64,000 bases of DNA. It comes from an uncultured Candidatus Saccharibacteria bacterium (GTDB lineage: Bacteria > Patescibacteriota > Saccharimonadia > Saccharimonadales > JAGQNK01). The position numbers were made by a program, and so were the translations under genes. This document shows positions 19,674 to 26,347 of the stretch, piece after piece. The stretch spans positions 32,746 through 96,745 of the forward strand of contig CAZWRG010000002.1 in assembly GCA_964636355.1 (NCBI GenBank). Direction: 5' to 3'. Position 1 is the stretch's first letter; every line of letters begins with the position of its first letter. A model generated the notes under the pieces. That model ran no database searches. It worked only from the letters and a program-made list of their open reading frames with translations, and was not told the DNA's origin.

Positions 19674-21710
19674 GTGATAGTTGATGAATCGTTAAGCAGT
19701 ATAAGGGGTGTGGGGCCGGCTTTGGCTGCCAAATTCAAGACTTTGGGTCTTAGTTCGGTTGGGGATTTAATTAATTATTATCCGCGGCGATATGATGATT
19801 ATTCTGAAGTTCAGCCGATTAAAAGCATCAAACCCGGGCCAGTTACCATAAAAGTGACAATTAAGCAGGCGAAGGGTCGTTATGTACGGCGTGGCATGCA
19901 CATTACCGAGGCGGTGGCTAGTGACTCCACGGGCAGTGTTAAGCTGGTTTGGTTTAACCAACCGTATCGGGCGGCGGCGCTTAAAAGTGAGGCTGAATAT
20001 TACGTATCTGGTGATTTTGCACTTAAAGCTAATCAGTTTAGCATTCAAAATCCGTCAGTCGAGCTGGTCAGTGAGTTTCCAGTAAGTACCGCCCGGATCG
20101 TGCCAATTTATAAAGAAACCAAAGGCTTGAAATCAGCCCAAATTCGTAAAACATTAAAAAATTGCATGCCAGCAATTCGTCAGCTGCCCGAAACATTGCC
20201 GGACTGGGTTATCGAAGATAATTCGCTGGTAGGCTTTAGTGAGGCGCTAAAGACAATCCACTTTCCACCCAGTTCTGAGGTCTTAAAATCTGCCAAAAAA
20301 CGGATTGGTTTTGAAGAAGTTTTTTCACTGGCTTTGTCGTCGCTGATAAATAAAAATGAATTGCTGCATGAACCAGCCCTTAAGATTGAATTTGATCAAC
20401 AGCTAGCTAAGGATTTTGTTAAAAAACTGCCATTTAAATTAACTGATTCGCAGCGCAAAGCTATCTGGCAAATCTATCTTGATATGGAAAAAGCTACGCC
20501 GATGAACCGATTATTAGAAGGCGACGTTGGCTCTGGTAAAACGGTGGTGGCTGTGATGGCGGCACTGATGGCTATGAACCGTGGTTTTCAGGTGGCTTTT
20601 ATGGCGCCTACTGAGATTTTGGCTCGTCAGCACGCTGAGACAATTTATAAATTACTGGAGCCGCTTGGCAGAGAAAAAGAAGTCACCCTGCTTGTCGGTG
20701 GCCTTAAGCCAAAAGCTAAAAGCCGTGCTCAGGATAATATTGCCAGCGGCAAAGCATTATTCATTGTTGGCACCCATGCTCTTTTGCAGGAAAAAGTGAG
20801 TTTTAAAAATCTCAATTTAGTGATTATTGACGAGCAGCACCGGTTTGGTGTCGAGCAACGCAAGCAGCTTCAAAAAATTACCGGACACATTCCGCACATG
20901 TTAAATATGACCGCCACGCCGATCCCCAGAAGTCTGGCGCTGACTTTATATGGAGAAATGGACATTACAATTATAGATGCCAAACCAGTTGGCCGAAAGC
21001 CGATAAAAACCAAAATTGTTTCACCAAATTCGCGGGCCCAGCTTTATAAAAAAATTGACCAGCAGCTGGCGATGGGTCGTCAAATGTTCGTGGTCACATC
21101 GCTGATTTCCACCTCTGATGTAGTGCCAGCTAAATCGGCCGATGAGGTTTATCAGGAACTTAGTTTAAAGTATTTCAAGCACCGCCGAGTGGGGCTTTTG
21201 CACGGCAAGTTAAAACCCGAGCAAAAAGACCATGTAATGCAACAATTTATGAATCATCAGCTTGATATTTTGGTTTCTACAACCGTAATCGAGGTTGGCG
21301 TTGACGTCCCAAATGCCACCGTCATGATTATTGAAAACGCTGAACGATTTGGCTTGGCACAGGTTCATCAACTTCGCGGCCGGGTTGGGCGCAGCGATCA
21401 TCAGGGTTATTGTTATTTAATGTTGAGCAATTCTAAGCCGCCAAGCCGCCGGCTTCGAGCGCTGGAACAATCTAACGATGGATTTTCTTTAGCGGAGTTG
21501 GATTTGGAAATTCGCGGCCCGGGAGCTATTTATGGAGTGTCTCAACATGGCCAGCTGGATCTCAGGATGGCTAAATTAACCGATGTTAAACTCATCCAGC
21601 AAGCCAAGAACGCCGCCGAGAAGTTTATTAGTAGCCAGGAAAAACTGGTAAAATATAAGCAATTACGGTCCAGAGTTAAAAAGCTTCGGGCAATTACAGT
21701 GTTAAATTAA
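19674..21710 (+). CDS. recG: ATP-dependent DNA helicase RecG
   Basis: Wedge-domain region plus helicase motifs GDVGSGKT, DEQHRFG and QLRGRVGR. Confidence 0.9.
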   Translation: MIVDESLSSIRGVGPALAAKFKTLGLSSVGDLINYYPRRYDDYSEVQPIKSIKPGPVTIKVTIKQAKGRYVRRGMHITEAVASDSTGSVKLVWFNQPYRAAALKSEAEYYVSGDFALKANQFSIQNPSVELVSEFPVSTARIVPIYKETKGLKSAQIRKTLKNCMPAIRQLPETLPDWVIEDNSLVGFSEALKTIHFPPSSEVLKSAKKRIGFEEVFSLALSSLINKNELLHEPALKIEFDQQLAKDFVKKLPFKLTDSQRKAIWQIYLDMEKATPMNRLLEGDVGSGKTVVAVMAALMAMNRGFQVAFMAPTEILARQHAETIYKLLEPLGREKEVTLLVGGLKPKAKSRAQDNIASGKALFIVGTHALLQEKVSFKNLNLVIIDEQHRFGVEQRKQLQKITGHIPHMLNMTATPIPRSLALTLYGEMDITIIDAKPVGRKPIKTKIVSPNSRAQLYKKIDQQLAMGRQMFVVTSLISTSDVVPAKSADEVYQELSLKYFKHRRVGLLHGKLKPEQKDHVMQQFMNHQLDILVSTTVIEVGVDVPNATVMIIENAERFGLAQVHQLRGRVGRSDHQGYCYLMLSNSKPPSRRLRALEQSNDGFSLAELDLEIRGPGAIYGVSQHGQLDLRMAKLTDVKLIQQAKNAAEKFISSQEKLVKYKQLRSRVKKLRAITVLN

Positions 21711-21767
21711 ATCGCAGAGGAACCCCCAAAGACATGGACTACATCAGATCAAGTCAGAAAATTTATT

Positions 21768-22649
21768 ATGTATAGCGGCACAACTCTTACTAGATATTCC
21801 GGACGGGTTATTGGCGGTCACCAAAAAATCGATCGCATTGCCCGGAGGCACCTTGGAAAACTTATTCCAAGGGACGTTGCTTTTCCAACTAGTCGTCAGA
21901 TTTTATATTTTGAAGGCAAAAACGGCCCCGATGCAATTAAGCGAAAAAGCCCCGCCAAGGATGAGCTGTGGCATTATTACGACCCGTTTGATGAAAACGA
22001 CACGCGTATTTTTGAAATAATTGATGATCATTTCGAGCAGCTGGTTAAGGAAATTAAAGCCGGCAACACCGAGCGTGTAGCGTTTGAAGCGGCGTGGCTG
22101 TCGCATGCCATTGTTGATGGTTTAACTCCAGCTCATCATTATCCCTACGAAGAGGAATTAACTCAGCTCCGCGGCGGTGAGGGTATCGAAACCCGAACTT
22201 CTCTCAAGCAAAAAATCATTATGCCTGGCATAAACAAGCGTCAAATCATGTCTAATAACTGGAAAATGTGGGGGCCCAAAGGCCTGATGTCAACTCACGC
22301 GCTGTTTGAAATGGGCGTCGCTGGCATAATCGCGCCGCTGACTTTTAGTGACACCGTTCCAAGACGTTCAGAAATCAAAACCATACAAGAAATTGGTGTA
22401 GTTGAATATTTTAAGCGAACGGCTCGTGAAATAGCAGTACTTGATATCTATCATCGTTATCATAAAAAGGGCTGGACGCCCAAGTTGGTTTACGAAGTCC
22501 GCCATCGGCTCGGTCCGTTAATTATAAGTTGTGTCACATTAGCTTGGTACCTGGCGCTAGTTGAAGCAAAAGTAATCGATAAAAATTATTATGAGAATCA
22601 TATCCGGAAGCCTCGGCGGAAGAACCTTCCAAAGTCCCAAAACATATAA
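21768..22649 (+). CDS. hypothetical His-rich protein (weak resemblance to zinc-dependent phospholipase C / S1-P1 nuclease-like folds)
   Basis: GGHQKIDRIARRHL and WLSHAIVDGLTPAHH motifs. The 3' end overlaps rsmD by 59 nt, so the true stop or start is uncertain. Confidence 0.45.
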   Translation: MYSGTTLTRYSGRVIGGHQKIDRIARRHLGKLIPRDVAFPTSRQILYFEGKNGPDAIKRKSPAKDELWHYYDPFDENDTRIFEIIDDHFEQLVKEIKAGNTERVAFEAAWLSHAIVDGLTPAHHYPYEEELTQLRGGEGIETRTSLKQKIIMPGINKRQIMSNNWKMWGPKGLMSTHALFEMGVAGIIAPLTFSDTVPRRSEIKTIQEIGVVEYFKRTAREIAVLDIYHRYHKKGWTPKLVYEVRHRLGPLIISCVTLAWYLALVEAKVIDKNYYENHIRKPRRKNLPKSQNI

Positions 22650-23124
22650 CACCCACCCGATGAGCGATAAAATTCGCGGCGCGATTTTTAATATGCTGGG
22701 TGATATTAGTGGGTTGAGTGTTTTGGACAGTTTTTCGGGTAGCGGGGCGATTGGGTTTGAGGCAATTAGTCGCGGCGCAAGCTCGGCACTGTTAGTCGAG
22801 ATTGATAAAACCGCTTTTCAAACCATCAAACAAAACATCAAGGCACTTGATCTTGAAGATCAAGTTCAGACGATACGCGGAAACATTAAGGGTTGGTCAA
22901 ATAATAATCCAGATAAAAAATTTGATATCGTAGTTTGCGATCCGCCGTATGACGCCGTTTTAGAGCAGTTGATTCATAAAATTTCACGGCATGTGAGCAG
23001 TGAGGGACTGTTGGTTTTATCATGGCCCAGCAAAGAGCCTACCCCTGTTATTCCACTGATGGAGCTGTTGCGCCACAAAACTTATGGCAATGCCACTCTG
23101 TTCATTTACAAAAAAACAGGGTAA
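22591..23124 (+). CDS. rsmD: 16S rRNA (guanine966-N2)-methyltransferase RsmD
   Basis: MRIISGSLGGRTF..P.....HPMSDKIRGAIFN, LDSFSGSGAIGFEAISRGA and the DPPY motif. Confidence 0.85.
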   Translation: MRIISGSLGGRTFQSPKTYNTHPMSDKIRGAIFNMLGDISGLSVLDSFSGSGAIGFEAISRGASSALLVEIDKTAFQTIKQNIKALDLEDQVQTIRGNIKGWSNNNPDKKFDIVVCDPPYDAVLEQLIHKISRHVSSEGLLVLSWPSKEPTPVIPLMELLRHKTYGNATLFIYKKTG

Positions 23125-23171
23125 AATAGTTTTTGTTTCAATAACCTGAAGCAACTGTTTAACAATCATAT

Positions 23172-23205
23172 GCGCGAGTGGTGAAATTGGTAGACACGCA
23201 TGCTT
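23172..23205 (+). pseudogene. tRNA-Leu-like 5' half fragment (acceptor + D arm + 5' anticodon stem only)
   Basis: gcgcgagtggtgaaattggtagacacgcatgctt closely parallels 23314-23347 of the intact tRNA-Leu (tggtgRaattggtagacacgcatgc). No matching anticodon stem, T arm or acceptor 3' strand follows. Confidence 0.45.
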
Positions 23206-23313
23206 ATAGTAGAATTCGAGCACGTGCCGCCGGCACATCGTACATTTTTAAGTTATATTACTGTATGGGGATGTAATGAATTGGTAGAGTCCCTCACAGT
23301 TTAAATCCTGGAT

Positions 23314-23398
23314 GCCGGAATGGTGGAATTGGTAGACACGCATGCCTTAGGAGCATGTGCCGCAAGGCGTGGAGGTTCAAGTCCTCTTTCCGGCACCA
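23314..23398 (+). tRNA. tRNA-Leu (anticodon UAG), CCA encoded
   Basis: Acceptor gccggaa/ttccggc, D loop aattggtaga, anticodon stem catgc/gcatg with loop cttagga, long variable arm, T arm ggagg-ttcaagt-cctct, then A-CCA. Confidence 0.9.
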
Positions 23399-23440
23399 AT
23401 TAGACCCAAATGATTTTCTAACAGTATAGTTTCAAACATT

Positions 23441-23797
23441 ATGAAGGATTTGGCACCACAGCTTACTCGCCAACGTCTACTTATTGAAGCTAAGTATGAC
23501 CGTGAGCTGAATCAAGCAGACATTAAGTCTTTTCTATTAGGCGTGGCTGAAAAACTAAATCTACGAATCTATGGTGACCCAATCATTCATTCGCCAAGCG
23601 GTGAAGGAAAAGATGAAAATCAAGGCTTTGATGCATTCGTACCTTTGATTGACTCAGGTATTTCATTATACGTTTGGACTAACGCAAAATTTCTGTCAGC
23701 TGTACTTTATACTTGTAAAGAGTTTTCTGTTGCTGATGCAGTTGAGTTTACAAAAAAATTCTTCAATACCTCAGAATTGGAACAACTAGAATTTTAG
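23441..23797 (+). CDS. small S-adenosylmethionine decarboxylase (SpeH/SpeD class 1)-like protein, divergent
   Basis: GFDAFVPLIDSGISLYVWTNAKFLSAVLYTCKE aligns by eye to the [33 protein letters not shown] core. The ES-H processing site reads DS-G, and the downstream His is Tyr. Confidence 0.5.
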   Translation: MKDLAPQLTRQRLLIEAKYDRELNQADIKSFLLGVAEKLNLRIYGDPIIHSPSGEGKDENQGFDAFVPLIDSGISLYVWTNAKFLSAVLYTCKEFSVADAVEFTKKFFNTSELEQLEF

Positions 23798-23963
23798 TCA
23801 AGTAGATTACCAGTGAGGTTAAATTTATTGACTAGCTGCTGTAGTTTATAATCGTTCACAGCATCGATAGCTGATGTTTGAAATGCGTCAACTATGTTGC
23901 ACCAAGATTTATACTGCGGGGCCCGCATATTCTCGTAGCAAGGTCCGCCTGCTACAGGACAGG

Positions 23964-24003
23964 CTTAGGAGCATGTGCCGCAAGGCGTGGAGGTTCAAGT
24001 CCT
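23964..24003 (+). repeat. 40-nt exact direct repeat of the 3' part of tRNA-Leu (anticodon loop to T arm)
   Basis: cttaggagcatgtgccgcaaggcgtggaggttcaagtcct is identical to 23346-23385. No complementary 5' half lies upstream, so it is not a tRNA gene. Confidence 0.9.
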
Positions 24004-24022
24004 TACACCCCACCAAACAATG

Positions 24023-24047
24023 AGCCCAGTGAATGCTGGGCTTTTTG
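24023..24047 (+). terminator. intrinsic terminator
   Basis: agcccag (24023-24029) pairs with ctgggct (24036-24042), followed by ttttt. Confidence 0.7.
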
Positions 24048-24163
24048 TATGGTTTGAAATCAAAATCATCTTTAGTATGGTGTGGGCTTGTTGTTTGAGG
24101 GGTTTGTAAAGTAGTTCACAAAATATATTTGTAGTATATACAAAAGGTGATAAAATAATTTTC

Positions 24164-24928
24164 ATGAACGAGAAACTTACACCTACTCAAATTGTTGATT
24201 TTGTAGAACATGATCCTATAGATTTACCAATATCAGATGCTGCGCTTCAAGTTGAAGTAGCTGAAAGGCGTGACATGATATTAAGTGCCATGGCTGATAG
24301 AGCACTAGATATTGCTACCGATCCTGCCAGTACACAGCGGGACGCCGGCCAGGCGACAGCAATATATAGCCAAATAGCAGAATTTCATCAGCCAAACAAT
24401 GAAAGTATGCCAACCTTTGAATCCCGCGTAGCCACCGCCAAACAAGCCCTCGCCGAGCGTTATAGTAAATCAGAAGAAGACTTTGAATTGATTTCGTGGC
24501 AAAACGAAGACGGTGAAACCGAGCATTCAGTTGTGTATGCAGCTTTGTCGGGAATTGATCTGGGTGACCCAGAGAAAGATTATGACGAAAAGCGTAGCTT
24601 CGATAGCCTAATGGCTGACGACACCCACTTCATAGAAATAAACGGCGAGCGGGTTGATACTCGTACTCTTACCGAGGCAGGCTATCGAGCCTTTATTAAA
24701 GCAGCTCAAGAAAAAGGCATTAGCCCATTACCAGATAGTGAGGCCCTGCGAGACGAAGAGAACGAAGGTGTTTGGACAGCCACCTGGCTACCAGGCGAAG
24801 AGGCGGACGGTTCGGACGCTCGGTGTGGTGACGTCAACGTCGGTCGGGCGCGCGTGATCTGGGTTTATCGTGACGGCGGCGGCCGTGCTATGCGGTTGCG
24901 CCCCGCAGTGATGATCAAAAAAGATTAA
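24164..24928 (+). CDS. hypothetical acidic protein, 254 aa
   Basis: Uninterrupted ORF with no recognised motif. C-terminus is Arg/Gly-rich (VGRARVIWVYRDGGGRAMRLRP). Confidence 0.5.
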   Translation: MNEKLTPTQIVDFVEHDPIDLPISDAALQVEVAERRDMILSAMADRALDIATDPASTQRDAGQATAIYSQIAEFHQPNNESMPTFESRVATAKQALAERYSKSEEDFELISWQNEDGETEHSVVYAALSGIDLGDPEKDYDEKRSFDSLMADDTHFIEINGERVDTRTLTEAGYRAFIKAAQEKGISPLPDSEALRDEENEGVWTATWLPGEEADGSDARCGDVNVGRARVIWVYRDGGGRAMRLRPAVMIKKD

Positions 24929-25042: not shown

Positions 25043-26347
25043 ATGGCCTTATCAACACAACCTTATAAAGGCGCGCGGGATTTTTATCCGGAGGATAAGC
25101 GCATTCAAAAATACATGTTTGGCGTTATGCGTGACGTGGTTGAGGCGTTTGGCTACGAAGAATACGATGCTCCAATCTTAGAGCCCACCGAACTCTATGC
25201 CGGCAAAACCAGCGAAGAAATCGTTAACGAACAAACCTATACTTTTAATGACCGCGGCGACAGAAGCGTTACTATCCGGACCGAAATGACTCCAAGCGTC
25301 AGCCGGATGGTGGCCGCCAAAAGGCAAGAACTGGCTTATCCGCTGCGCTGGTATTCGATTCCAAATTTGTGGCGTTATGAGAGGCCGCAGCGTGGGCGTC
25401 TGCGTGAGTTTTGGCAGCTGAATGTTGACCTTTTTGGGGTGGCTGGCGTTGAGGCTGATCACGAAGCTATATTAGTGGCCGATAGAATCATGCAGGCTTT
25501 TGGCGCCAAGCGCAGTATGTATACAGTCAAACTCAACAGCCGCAAGCTCATGGACAGTCTGTTTAGCGACGTCTTAAAGTTGGACGCCACTCAAAGCAAA
25601 ACCATGGCTCAGCTGATTGATAAAATGCAAAAACTGGAATACGCCGAATTTGCTGCTAAGCTTGACGCTATTTTTCGGCCAGATCAAAGAGAGGCTGGTG
25701 AACCGGAGCTGCTGCTTGAGTTTTTAAAGTGCAGGGATTTTAAAGATCTGCCGGCTCAGATAAGTTCCCATCCTTCGGCTTTGGAGTTGCAAAAACTGAT
25801 GTCGATGTTTGATCAGGCTGGAATTTCCAATGTTGAGTTTGATGTTTCGTTGATGCGCGGATTTGATTATTATACCGATATCGTTTTTGAGGTTTTTGAT
25901 ACTCATCCGGAGAACAATCGGTCACTGTTTGGCGGCGGCCGTTATGACGGACTGGTTGGCTTGTTCGGAGTTGAGCCGGTGCCGACAGTTGGTTTTGGGA
26001 TGGGTGATGTGCCGCTTAAAAACTTCTTAGAAACGCACGAGCTTATGCCAAAACTGGAGCCAGAGACCGATGTTTACGTGATTTTAATTGGCGACGTTTA
26101 TGAGCGGGCGCAACCAGTGCTTAGCGATCTTCGAAATATGGGCGTCAAGCTGGCGGTAGACATTAGCGGCCGAAAGCCTGATAAACAAATTAAAACAGCT
26201 GTTAAAAAGGGCATTCATTACGCCCTGTTCATCGGCGAAAATGAGCTGACTGACGAACAGTTTGTGCTTAAAAATTTACTGACTTCTGAAGAGGAAAAAC
26301 ACGGCCTGGAGCGACTTGTCAGTATCATTAAAGATTATCGGAAGTAA
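25043..26347 (+). CDS. hisS: histidyl-tRNA synthetase
   Basis: Class II motifs (RWYSIPNLWRYERPQRGRLREFWQ, GGGRYDGL) and an anticodon-binding C-terminal domain. Confidence 0.9.
   Translation: MALSTQPYKGARDFYPEDKRIQKYMFGVMRDVVEAFGYEEYDAPILEPTELYAGKTSEEIVNEQTYTFNDRGDRSVTIRTEMTPSVSRMVAAKRQELAYPLRWYSIPNLWRYERPQRGRLREFWQLNVDLFGVAGVEADHEAILVADRIMQAFGAKRSMYTVKLNSRKLMDSLFSDVLKLDATQSKTMAQLIDKMQKLEYAEFAAKLDAIFRPDQREAGEPELLLEFLKCRDFKDLPAQISSHPSALELQKLMSMFDQAGISNVEFDVSLMRGFDYYTDIVFEVFDTHPENNRSLFGGGRYDGLVGLFGVEPVPTVGFGMGDVPLKNFLETHELMPKLEPETDVYVILIGDVYERAQPVLSDLRNMGVKLAVDISGRKPDKQIKTAVKKGIHYALFIGENELTDEQFVLKNLLTSEEEKHGLERLVSIIKDYRK

Follow-up and report, generated by a model that had tools for sequence, protein, structure and literature searches.

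Islands and prophages reportedly integrate into tRNA genes by means of tyrosine integrases, with attL and attR sites as the outcome; this is said to have been described by Reiter in 1989 and by Williams in 2002. Work on streptococcal integrative and conjugative elements added the term CIME ('cis-mobilisable element') for att-flanked remnants of integrative elements which have no integrase. In the classical scheme the regenerated gene is composed of the host 5' half and the element 3' half, while the displaced fragment is the old 3' end of the host gene; the crossover subsites given for Islander are the anticodon loop (subsite A), the T loop and the T/acceptor junction (PMC4383910). Fragments of tRNA genes were interpreted as by-products of mobile-element integration in prokaryotes by van der Gulik et al. 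2023 (PMC9897764). The locus described here lies in a 64-kb stretch of a Saccharibacteria (TM7) chromosome, which as a whole is called the window below. It consists of an intact tRNA-Leu(UAG) gene between rsmD and hisS, with pieces of tRNA-Leu 5' ends upstream and, behind a small AdoMetDC-like gene, a tRNA-Leu 3' half downstream. The explanation which we consider probable, with modest confidence, is that horizontally acquired DNA once entered the tRNA-Leu(UAG) gene then resident at the rsmD/tRNA-Leu/hisS site, and that the locus is the worn-down scar of this event.

As in the tRNA-integrated islands of Islander (PMC4383910), a complete tRNA gene is accompanied by a same-strand 3' fragment downstream, the fragment starts in the anticodon loop (subsite A), accessory DNA lies between the two, and the site is empty in relatives. 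Unlike in those islands, the interval is only 0.6 kb long and carries no integrase, 5' fragments are found upstream as well, the displaced 3' end and the 5' half of the intact gene are not partners, and the intact gene seems to be a complete import rather than a regenerate of a host 5' and an element 3' half. The likeness to a CIME consists in a short segment between att-like repeats at a tRNA gene, without a recombination module and plausibly derived by deletion; the segment was, however, found nowhere else, and its repeats are not a matched attL/attR pair. With the cases of van der Gulik et al. (PMC9897764) the window shares partial, non-functional tRNA copies beside a complete gene, ascribed to incoming DNA. 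In those cases the elements measure 9-23 kb and the fragments duplicate the neighboring gene, whereas in the window the fragments are derived from other alleles and the element would be nearly gone. A decayed insertion scar at a tRNA gene is a known kind of feature, here located in a Saccharibacteria genome; tRNA fragments left by integrating elements are well known, and in its basic form the finding is an ordinary one. The literature yielded no paper on integration at tRNA-Leu in Saccharibacteria. The unusual detail is that the working tRNA appears, from allele comparison, to be a complete foreign allele lying between the remnants of earlier resident genes.

The locus was compared with 28 genome loci obtained via RsmD and with 10 metagenome loci obtained via an exact 40-nt stretch of the tRNA; single loci and contigs are designated by L numbers. 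The genes around the tRNA include recG, rsmD, hisS, tig and clpP, and homologs of the proteins of the stretch were drawn from Saccharibacteria and Saccharimonadales metagenome-assembled genomes. The order recG, PLC-like gene, rsmD, tRNA-Leu(UAG), hisS, p146, tig is kept in these 28 + 10 loci, with rsmD, tRNA-Leu(UAG) and hisS retained in this order in about 29 related Saccharibacteria loci. The nearest available RsmD is only 77% identical to that of the window. In L007, L009, L013 and L014 the tRNA stands directly between rsmD and hisS; this empty site agrees with the suggestion of the initial annotation that accessory DNA is present in the tRNA gene. Since the AdoMetDC-like gene and a 254-aa open reading frame (ORF) further downstream were absent at this site in all 28 + 10 related loci, both are insertions. 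Other relatives have differing small genes up- or downstream of the tRNA, including OMP-decarboxylase-like, UPF0259, HisG/PRA-PH, PRA-CH, AstE/AspA, His_Phos_1, DUF4389 and unknown ORFs, with no recombinase among them. Based on these variable genes and on the content seen in the window only, the rsmD-hisS interval is a hotspot of gene-content change, and the content of the window is lineage-specific. Very small Saccharibacteria genomes, too, have a tRNA-linked hotspot at which small accessory genes (here the AdoMetDC-like gene and orphan ORFs) are gained and lost.

The intact tRNA-Leu(UAG) was the only tRNA predicted in the region, both by ARAGORN and by Rfam (57.5 bits), and a search of 23000-24250 against Rfam, even at E<=10, gave no further RNA family and no intron besides it. 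One functional tRNA had also been proposed in the initial annotation, and indeed no extra tRNA is predicted, while every relative compared has a single tRNA-Leu(UAG) at the locus. The acceptor stem GCCGGAA/TTCCGGC is perfectly paired and the discriminator base is A. This acceptor allele, to which the stretches GCCGGAATGGTGGAATTGGTAGACACG and GGTTCAAGTCCTCTTTCCGGCACCA of the intact gene belong, was seen in none of about 39 related loci. The sequence GTTTAAAT upstream of the gene may serve as a promoter element.

Repeat search revealed an exact direct repeat of 40 nt (23346-23385 = 23964-24003; 618 nt from start to start). It covers nt 33-72 of the tRNA; the anticodon loop CTTAGGA begins with nt 33, and nt 72 is the third position in the 3' strand of the T stem. 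An identity of 40 nt is too long for chance. Past the repeat the intact gene reads CTTTCCGGCACCA and the downstream copy TACACCCCACCA; the repeat, the differing end and the terminator behind it are all present as initially described. The exact 40-mer was also found in 10 metagenome contigs, always as part of an intact tRNA-Leu(UAG) in this position of the chromosome, joined to four different acceptor stems (GGGGATG, GCGCGAG, GGGCGAG and GCCGCGG). Because it is shared by intact tRNAs with four acceptor stems, tRNA-Leu(UAG) genes of different origin can match exactly over these 40 nt. The 40-mer is the invariant, conserved core of the tRNA, and is evidence neither of an att core nor of a recent event. 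Its right edge is the point where the alleles start to differ, and only its left edge, at nt 32|33, is a true breakpoint; the identity of the core may also be maintained by gene conversion. Of the attL/attR footprint proposed on the basis of this repeat, the anticodon-loop edge at nt 33 stands, and it recurs in a second locus (L006, see below), but the exact 40-mer belongs to the tRNA core and the two ends do not match. A caution for island detection is that an exact repeat of a tRNA core is not readable as an att core or as a recent event, because the same 40-mer is common to lineages with different acceptor stems.

The acceptor stem of tRNA-Leu(UAG) is strongly polymorphic in related Saccharibacteria. 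Based on the genes of L001-L021 and L044-L053, the types GCGCGAG, GGGCGAG, GCGGATG, GGGGATG and GCCGCGG were read, GCCGGAA being the type of the window. In spite of this polymorphism, the genes can agree completely over nt 33-72. In the few loci compared, the acceptor type did not track the identity of RsmD to that of the window.

The tRNA pieces of the window (Table 1) are assigned by their sequences to three alleles: GCGCGAG (pseudo-tRNA A), GGGGATG (fragment B and the 3' half) and GCCGGAA (the intact gene). In the repeat search the first 5' copy was 34 nt long and 88% identical (23170-23203 vs 23312-23345). Using nhmmer with a profile built from 29 related tRNA-Leu(UAG) genes, it was extended to tRNA nt 1-50 (E 9.5e-9); the 5'-half copy of the initial annotation is present, but it is longer than the 34 nt assigned to it, and a second 5' piece, fragment B, was overlooked. 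Pseudo-tRNA A has the acceptor strand GCGCGAG and is 97% identical to nt 1-32 of the L007 tRNA, and the flank upstream of it aligns with the tRNA-upstream flanks of several relatives; it occupies the ancestral position of the tRNA right behind rsmD. Its anticodon loop is broken by an 11-nt insertion, TAGTAGAATTC (23207-23217), and the copy ends in the variable arm. Fragment B is the 23-nt GGGGATGTAATGAATTGGTAGAG, which combines the GGGGATG acceptor strand, identical to that of L006, L009 and L044, with a D-loop motif. The motif AATTGGTAGA occurs four times in the window versus 0.23 expected, three of these being located within 23185-23336.

The 3' half agrees with the intact gene in every one of its first 40 nt, and its left junction is at tRNA nt 32|33. 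The end of this piece, CCTTACACCCCACCA, differs by one substitution and one deletion from the CCTTTCATCCCCACCA of the GGGGATG allele and is interpreted as a decayed form of that end. Together with its terminator, the 3' half is 88% identical over 85 nt to nt 33-85 of the L009 tRNA plus the terminator of that gene. Fragment B and the 3' half look like both ends of one older GGGGATG-type gene which was split by the segment 23290-23963, a segment that contains the complete GCCGGAA gene, the AdoMetDC-like gene and a short antisense ORF. The spacers between the tRNA pieces show no mutual similarity. As a separate observation, the 11-nt insertion in pseudo-tRNA A creates two sigma-70-like -10 boxes, TATAGT and TAGAAT (promoter scan, 23181-23215), which face the intact tRNA.

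Table 1. Features of the tRNA-Leu(UAG) locus and its surroundings (positions in the window)
Feature	Position	Strand	Evidence and remarks
rsmD (16S rRNA m2G966 methyltransferase)	22591..23124	+	Pfam Cons_hypoth95 E 4e-44; conserved left anchor, with synteny in 28 genome loci
Pseudo-tRNA A, nt 1-50 of a GCGCGAG-type tRNA-Leu(UAG)	23172..23230	+	nhmmer, L007 identity, flank alignment, sequence reading
Fragment B, putative remnant of a GGGGATG-type tRNA-Leu (decayed 5' end, about nt 1-24)	23267..23289	+	Sequence reading, alignment, motif enrichment
Upstream flank of intact tRNA, 24 nt	23290..23313	+	Sequence reading; A/T-rich, -10-like GTTTAAAT
Intact tRNA-Leu(UAG)	23314..23398	+	ARAGORN, Rfam 57.5 bits; allele comparison
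40-nt repeat, copy 1	23346..23385	+	Repeat search; tRNA nt 33-72
118-aa AdoMetDC-like gene	23441..23797	+	Pfam PF02675 (AdoMet_dc), E 1.2e-7
44-codon antisense ORF	23794..23928	-	Sub-threshold Pfam match only (E 0.04)
3' half (nt 33-85) of a presumed former resident GGGGATG-type tRNA-Leu	23964..24015	+	Repeat search; nhmmer E 7e-13
Intrinsic terminator, presumably of the displaced resident tRNA	24022..24047	+	Terminator scan (hairpin 24022-24043); homologous to L009 post-tRNA terminator
254-aa ORF	24164..24928	+	Between old terminator and hisS; second locus-specific insertion
hisS (histidyl-tRNA synthetase)	25043..26347	+	tblastn synteny in relatives; conserved right anchor

Under the classical scheme, complementarity is expected between the displaced end and the 5' strand of the gene after its regeneration. 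In the window, the displaced end (CA-CCCC; CACCCCA-CCA) is unable to pair with GCCGGAA, the 5' strand of the intact gene, and due to this mismatch the simple attL/attR model fails; the intact gene is self-consistent, and foreign to the pieces on both sides. In the explanation which we prefer, an element targeting the anticodon loop of tRNA-Leu(UAG) would have entered the then-resident GGGGATG-type gene, most likely via a tyrosine integrase, with its own complete tRNA-Leu and the AdoMetDC-like gene as its load. Later on, a single deletion would have begun at nt 24, inside the 5' half of the old gene, and reached into the element. The integrase, the hybrid tRNA and the bulk of the element would have been lost by it, whereas the imported tRNA would have been retained along with the AdoMetDC-like cargo and the junction on the right. 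The imported GCCGGAA tRNA would now serve in place of the resident gene, and the GCGCGAG-type pseudo-tRNA A with its 11-nt anticodon-loop scar would be the record of a yet earlier round.

The positions of the breakpoints in other loci are the main argument for a site-specific recombinase over random joins. In L006 the order is rsmD, a small ORF, a 16-nt 5' stub of the GCGCGAG type, a 159-nt spacer, an intact GGGGATG-type tRNA, a 24-nt spacer and a 3' half which starts with CTTAGGA (nt 33), has a GGGCGAG-type 3' strand and is interrupted by a 109-nt insertion. As in the window, the intact gene of the locus and the displaced 3' end do not fit each other. This architecture, in which the 5' stub and the intact tRNA belong to different alleles and are followed by a 3' half beginning at nt 33, is interpreted as an independent parallel to that of the window. 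Exact repeats of the tRNA-Leu 3' end were identified in two further loci, 19 nt long and 130 nt downstream in L012 (5658-5830), and 16 nt long and 185 nt downstream in L011 (6439-6660). Both start in the T loop and look like tiny attL/attR-type scars of the T-loop class; in L012 each copy of the 3' end is followed by a hairpin and a T-run, read as separate terminators. All four downstream-fragment breakpoints are therefore placed in two 7-nt loops, at nt 33 in the window and L006 and in the T loop in L011 and L012, for which we estimate a probability of about 0.002 if breakpoints were uniform. In L008 (3015-3220), a tandem duplication of about 110 nt was observed upstream of the tRNA-Leu gene, including its first 12 nt (CGTGGGCGAGTGGTG twice).

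Between the two 40-nt copies no integrase was found; as stated in the initial annotation, this bounded segment holds the 118-aa AdoMetDC-like ORF and the 44-codon ORF only. The proposal to look for the 40-mer beside integrases led to 10 metagenome matches to the exact sequence, all of them intact tRNAs and none near an integrase. A degenerate 40-mer gave no match in viral contigs, and a shorter core pattern only identified intact tRNA-Leu genes there, mostly in multi-tRNA clusters of larger phage contigs. A scan of viral contigs (IMG/VR) with a T-arm/acceptor pattern gave L089, L132, L142 and L150, and 46 relatives were obtained via the integrase. The contigs of this family (L089, with L132, L142, L150 and L190-L198) are about 30-37 kb long with a GC content of about 40%. 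They encode a 315-aa tyrosine integrase (Pfam Phage_integrase, E 3.6e-26), which in L089 (380-3500) is located 277 nt from a tRNA-Leu(UAG) 3' half that begins at the anticodon stem-loop, and at a distance of 1.7 kb, on the opposite strand, they carry a complete tRNA-Leu(UAG) of the GCGGATG type. No similar phage was found in GenBank, and the matches to the integrase were all below 30% identity. The family (L089, L190-L198) resembles the window in using the same tRNA species and subsite and in having a complete spare tRNA-Leu(UAG); it differs in its allele, GCGGATG, in the location of the spare tRNA opposite the att fragment, and in sharing no genes with the window. By analogy, it may serve as a precedent only, for an element that targets this loop and has a complete spare tRNA-Leu(UAG). 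The same integrase is present in the contigs L192 (5228-8662) and L197, whose sequence departs from that of the att-bearing form as early as 7 nt into the tRNA-like 3' end. Past this point there are three long ORFs which, by eye, resemble DNA methyltransferases and a restriction enzyme rather than host core genes.

Several observations weigh against an integrated element as the source of the scar. No integrase or recombinase was detected in the rsmD-hisS intervals of the relatives or among the ten larger window ORFs tested, and no full-length element was found at this tRNA in any Saccharibacteria locus compared. Fragment B is short and the weakest part of the reconstruction, with no match by nhmmer or blastn-short. 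In the 3' half, the final 12 nt contain 2-3 changes although the 40 nt before them are unchanged, a pattern which suggests gene conversion by the intact copy, or an unsampled allele. Since nt 33-50 of the tRNA are represented both in pseudo-tRNA A and in the 3' half, at least two events are needed. A deletion starting inside the 5' half is required both in the window (nt 24) and in L006 (nt 16), which is a coincidence. Finally, the spare tRNA of the L089 family is antiparallel to its att fragment, whereas the pieces of the window are all on the same strand.

It may further be speculated, although we consider it doubtful, that some integrative elements of Saccharibacteria-like hosts bring a complete spare tRNA-Leu(UAG) instead of regenerating the split gene. 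With an acceptor stem that varies between host lineages and an invariant 40-nt core in which the crossover site lies, a hybrid tRNA of host and element would often be defective. If elements did bring their own tRNA, they could enter hosts of any acceptor type, and the tRNA-Leu allele of the host would be serially replaced, with the window (three alleles in 850 nt) and L006 as fossils of this process. Such a design would explain how the elements cope with the divergence of acceptor stems, as well as the mosaic of tRNA alleles among related genomes.

Other explanations were also considered. A misassembly of metagenome reads across the conserved tRNA core is hardly credible. The core is common to co-occurring species and contigs of independent assemblies break there, but the left side was exactly reproduced by an independent assembly: a contig in the Logan assembly of run SRR7082976 is identical to 21660-23349 of the window, a stretch that takes in pseudo-tRNA A, fragment B and the 5' portion of the intact tRNA. 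The right side was recovered from a different sample in L067, which has the identical CCTTACACCCCACCA end, the terminator and the start of the 254-aa ORF. L067 begins 30 nt before the end of the 40-mer, inside the tRNA core, the point at which a k=31 graph would break at a repeat ending there. The halves of the intact tRNA are, moreover, perfectly complementary, and the junction between non-tRNA sequence and nt 33 must be present in the reads. The locus is not an assembly artefact. A local tandem array of tRNA-Leu genes whose extra copies decayed, which corresponds to the collapsed tandem genes put forward initially, is very improbable. Small local duplications do occur, as the one in L008 demonstrates, but all relatives have one tRNA-Leu(UAG) per locus, the spacers between the pieces are dissimilar, and decay cannot yield three acceptor stems of which two are identical to the alleles of other lineages. 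Tandem-gene decay was rejected based on the three alleles and the single genes in relatives. It is equally improbable that the pieces are functional, be it as split-tRNA halves or by giving the AdoMetDC-like transcript a tRNA-like 3' structure or a processing signal. The 3' half and terminator are identical in L067 in spite of the divergence of the ORF further on, and the old terminator is suitably placed to end transcripts from the tRNA or from the AdoMetDC-like gene. The first 450 nt shared with L067 are, however, all about 98% identical, and not the fragment alone; the folding of 23900-24050 is unremarkable (z = -1.7), with only the terminator being stable; the acceptor strands of the pieces are not complementary; and AdoMetDC-like homologs occur elsewhere without adjoining tRNA pieces. 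A split or intron-containing tRNA was rejected in addition, as GCGCGAG and GGGGATG pair with CACCCCA only with defects and no intron was found by Rfam.

The main rival is recombination anchored on the tRNA core, which we regard as a serious if rather unlikely possibility. Saccharibacteria take up DNA by competence. Without any site-specific recombinase, repeated homologous or homology-facilitated illegitimate recombination with the DNA of other Saccharibacteria could have used the invariant core as a crossover or anchor point, this 40-nt core being among the few sequences in which diverged lineages agree perfectly. The locus would have been overwritten in this way, and the pieces would be junction scars. 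This would be in keeping with a core that is identical across lineages differing in the acceptor stem, with the mosaic spread of acceptor types among relatives, with the lack of an integrase in the loci of relatives and in the tested ORFs of the window, and with a cargo of ordinary small metabolic genes. L067, too, is 97.6% identical from the core to 24423 and 78% beyond, like a tract ending in the 254-aa ORF. A double crossover or anchored insertion would, however, leave the anchor unduplicated, and would not produce an intact tRNA together with a 3' half in the same orientation. In addition, the same nt 32|33 junction in two independent loci, and a T-loop junction in two more, would be unexpected for illegitimate joins.

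The AdoMetDC-like protein scored above the Pfam gathering threshold for PF02675 (32.5 bits vs a cutoff of 25). Its family comprises 2026 homologs, nearly all of 118 aa, and an alignment of 25 sequences showed 34 invariant columns, including LIDSGI, which contains a serine, and TCK. No PDB chain was matched by sequence, and an exact look-up of the protein in the contig index gave no record. The family is large and tightly conserved. The gene is intact, real and accessory, and would be the surviving cargo. The five close homologs (L029, L031, L033, L034, L036) are located in five unrelated neighborhoods and none of them has tRNA-Leu pieces beside it, which leaves the miniature mobilizable cassette considered in the initial annotation without support. 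The DNA flanking the AdoMetDC-like gene had no match elsewhere. In L033 the homolog adjoins a helix-turn-helix protein and a reverse transcriptase (RVT_1). The 44-codon antisense ORF is probably not a gene, and the DNA of 23798-23963 matched nothing in any related locus compared.

No Pfam family was assigned to the 254-aa ORF, and only 4 homologs were found among 5.8 billion proteins. Its DNA is 97.6% identical to L067 (191-952) up to 24423 and about 78% identical from there on; this mosaic points to one of two causes, recombination with a breakpoint within the gene or hypervariability of its C-terminal half. Beyond its homolog of this ORF, L067 continues with different DNA and has no hisS. 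On the other side of the locus, the start of rsmD overlaps with the 3' end of a 293-aa PLC-like ORF (21768-22649) by 59 nt (22591-22649), and this overlap is also present in several relatives. In L050 (1051-2219) and L052 (4028-4915), hisS is missing from the locus, and the order is rsmD, tRNA-Leu, p146, tig.

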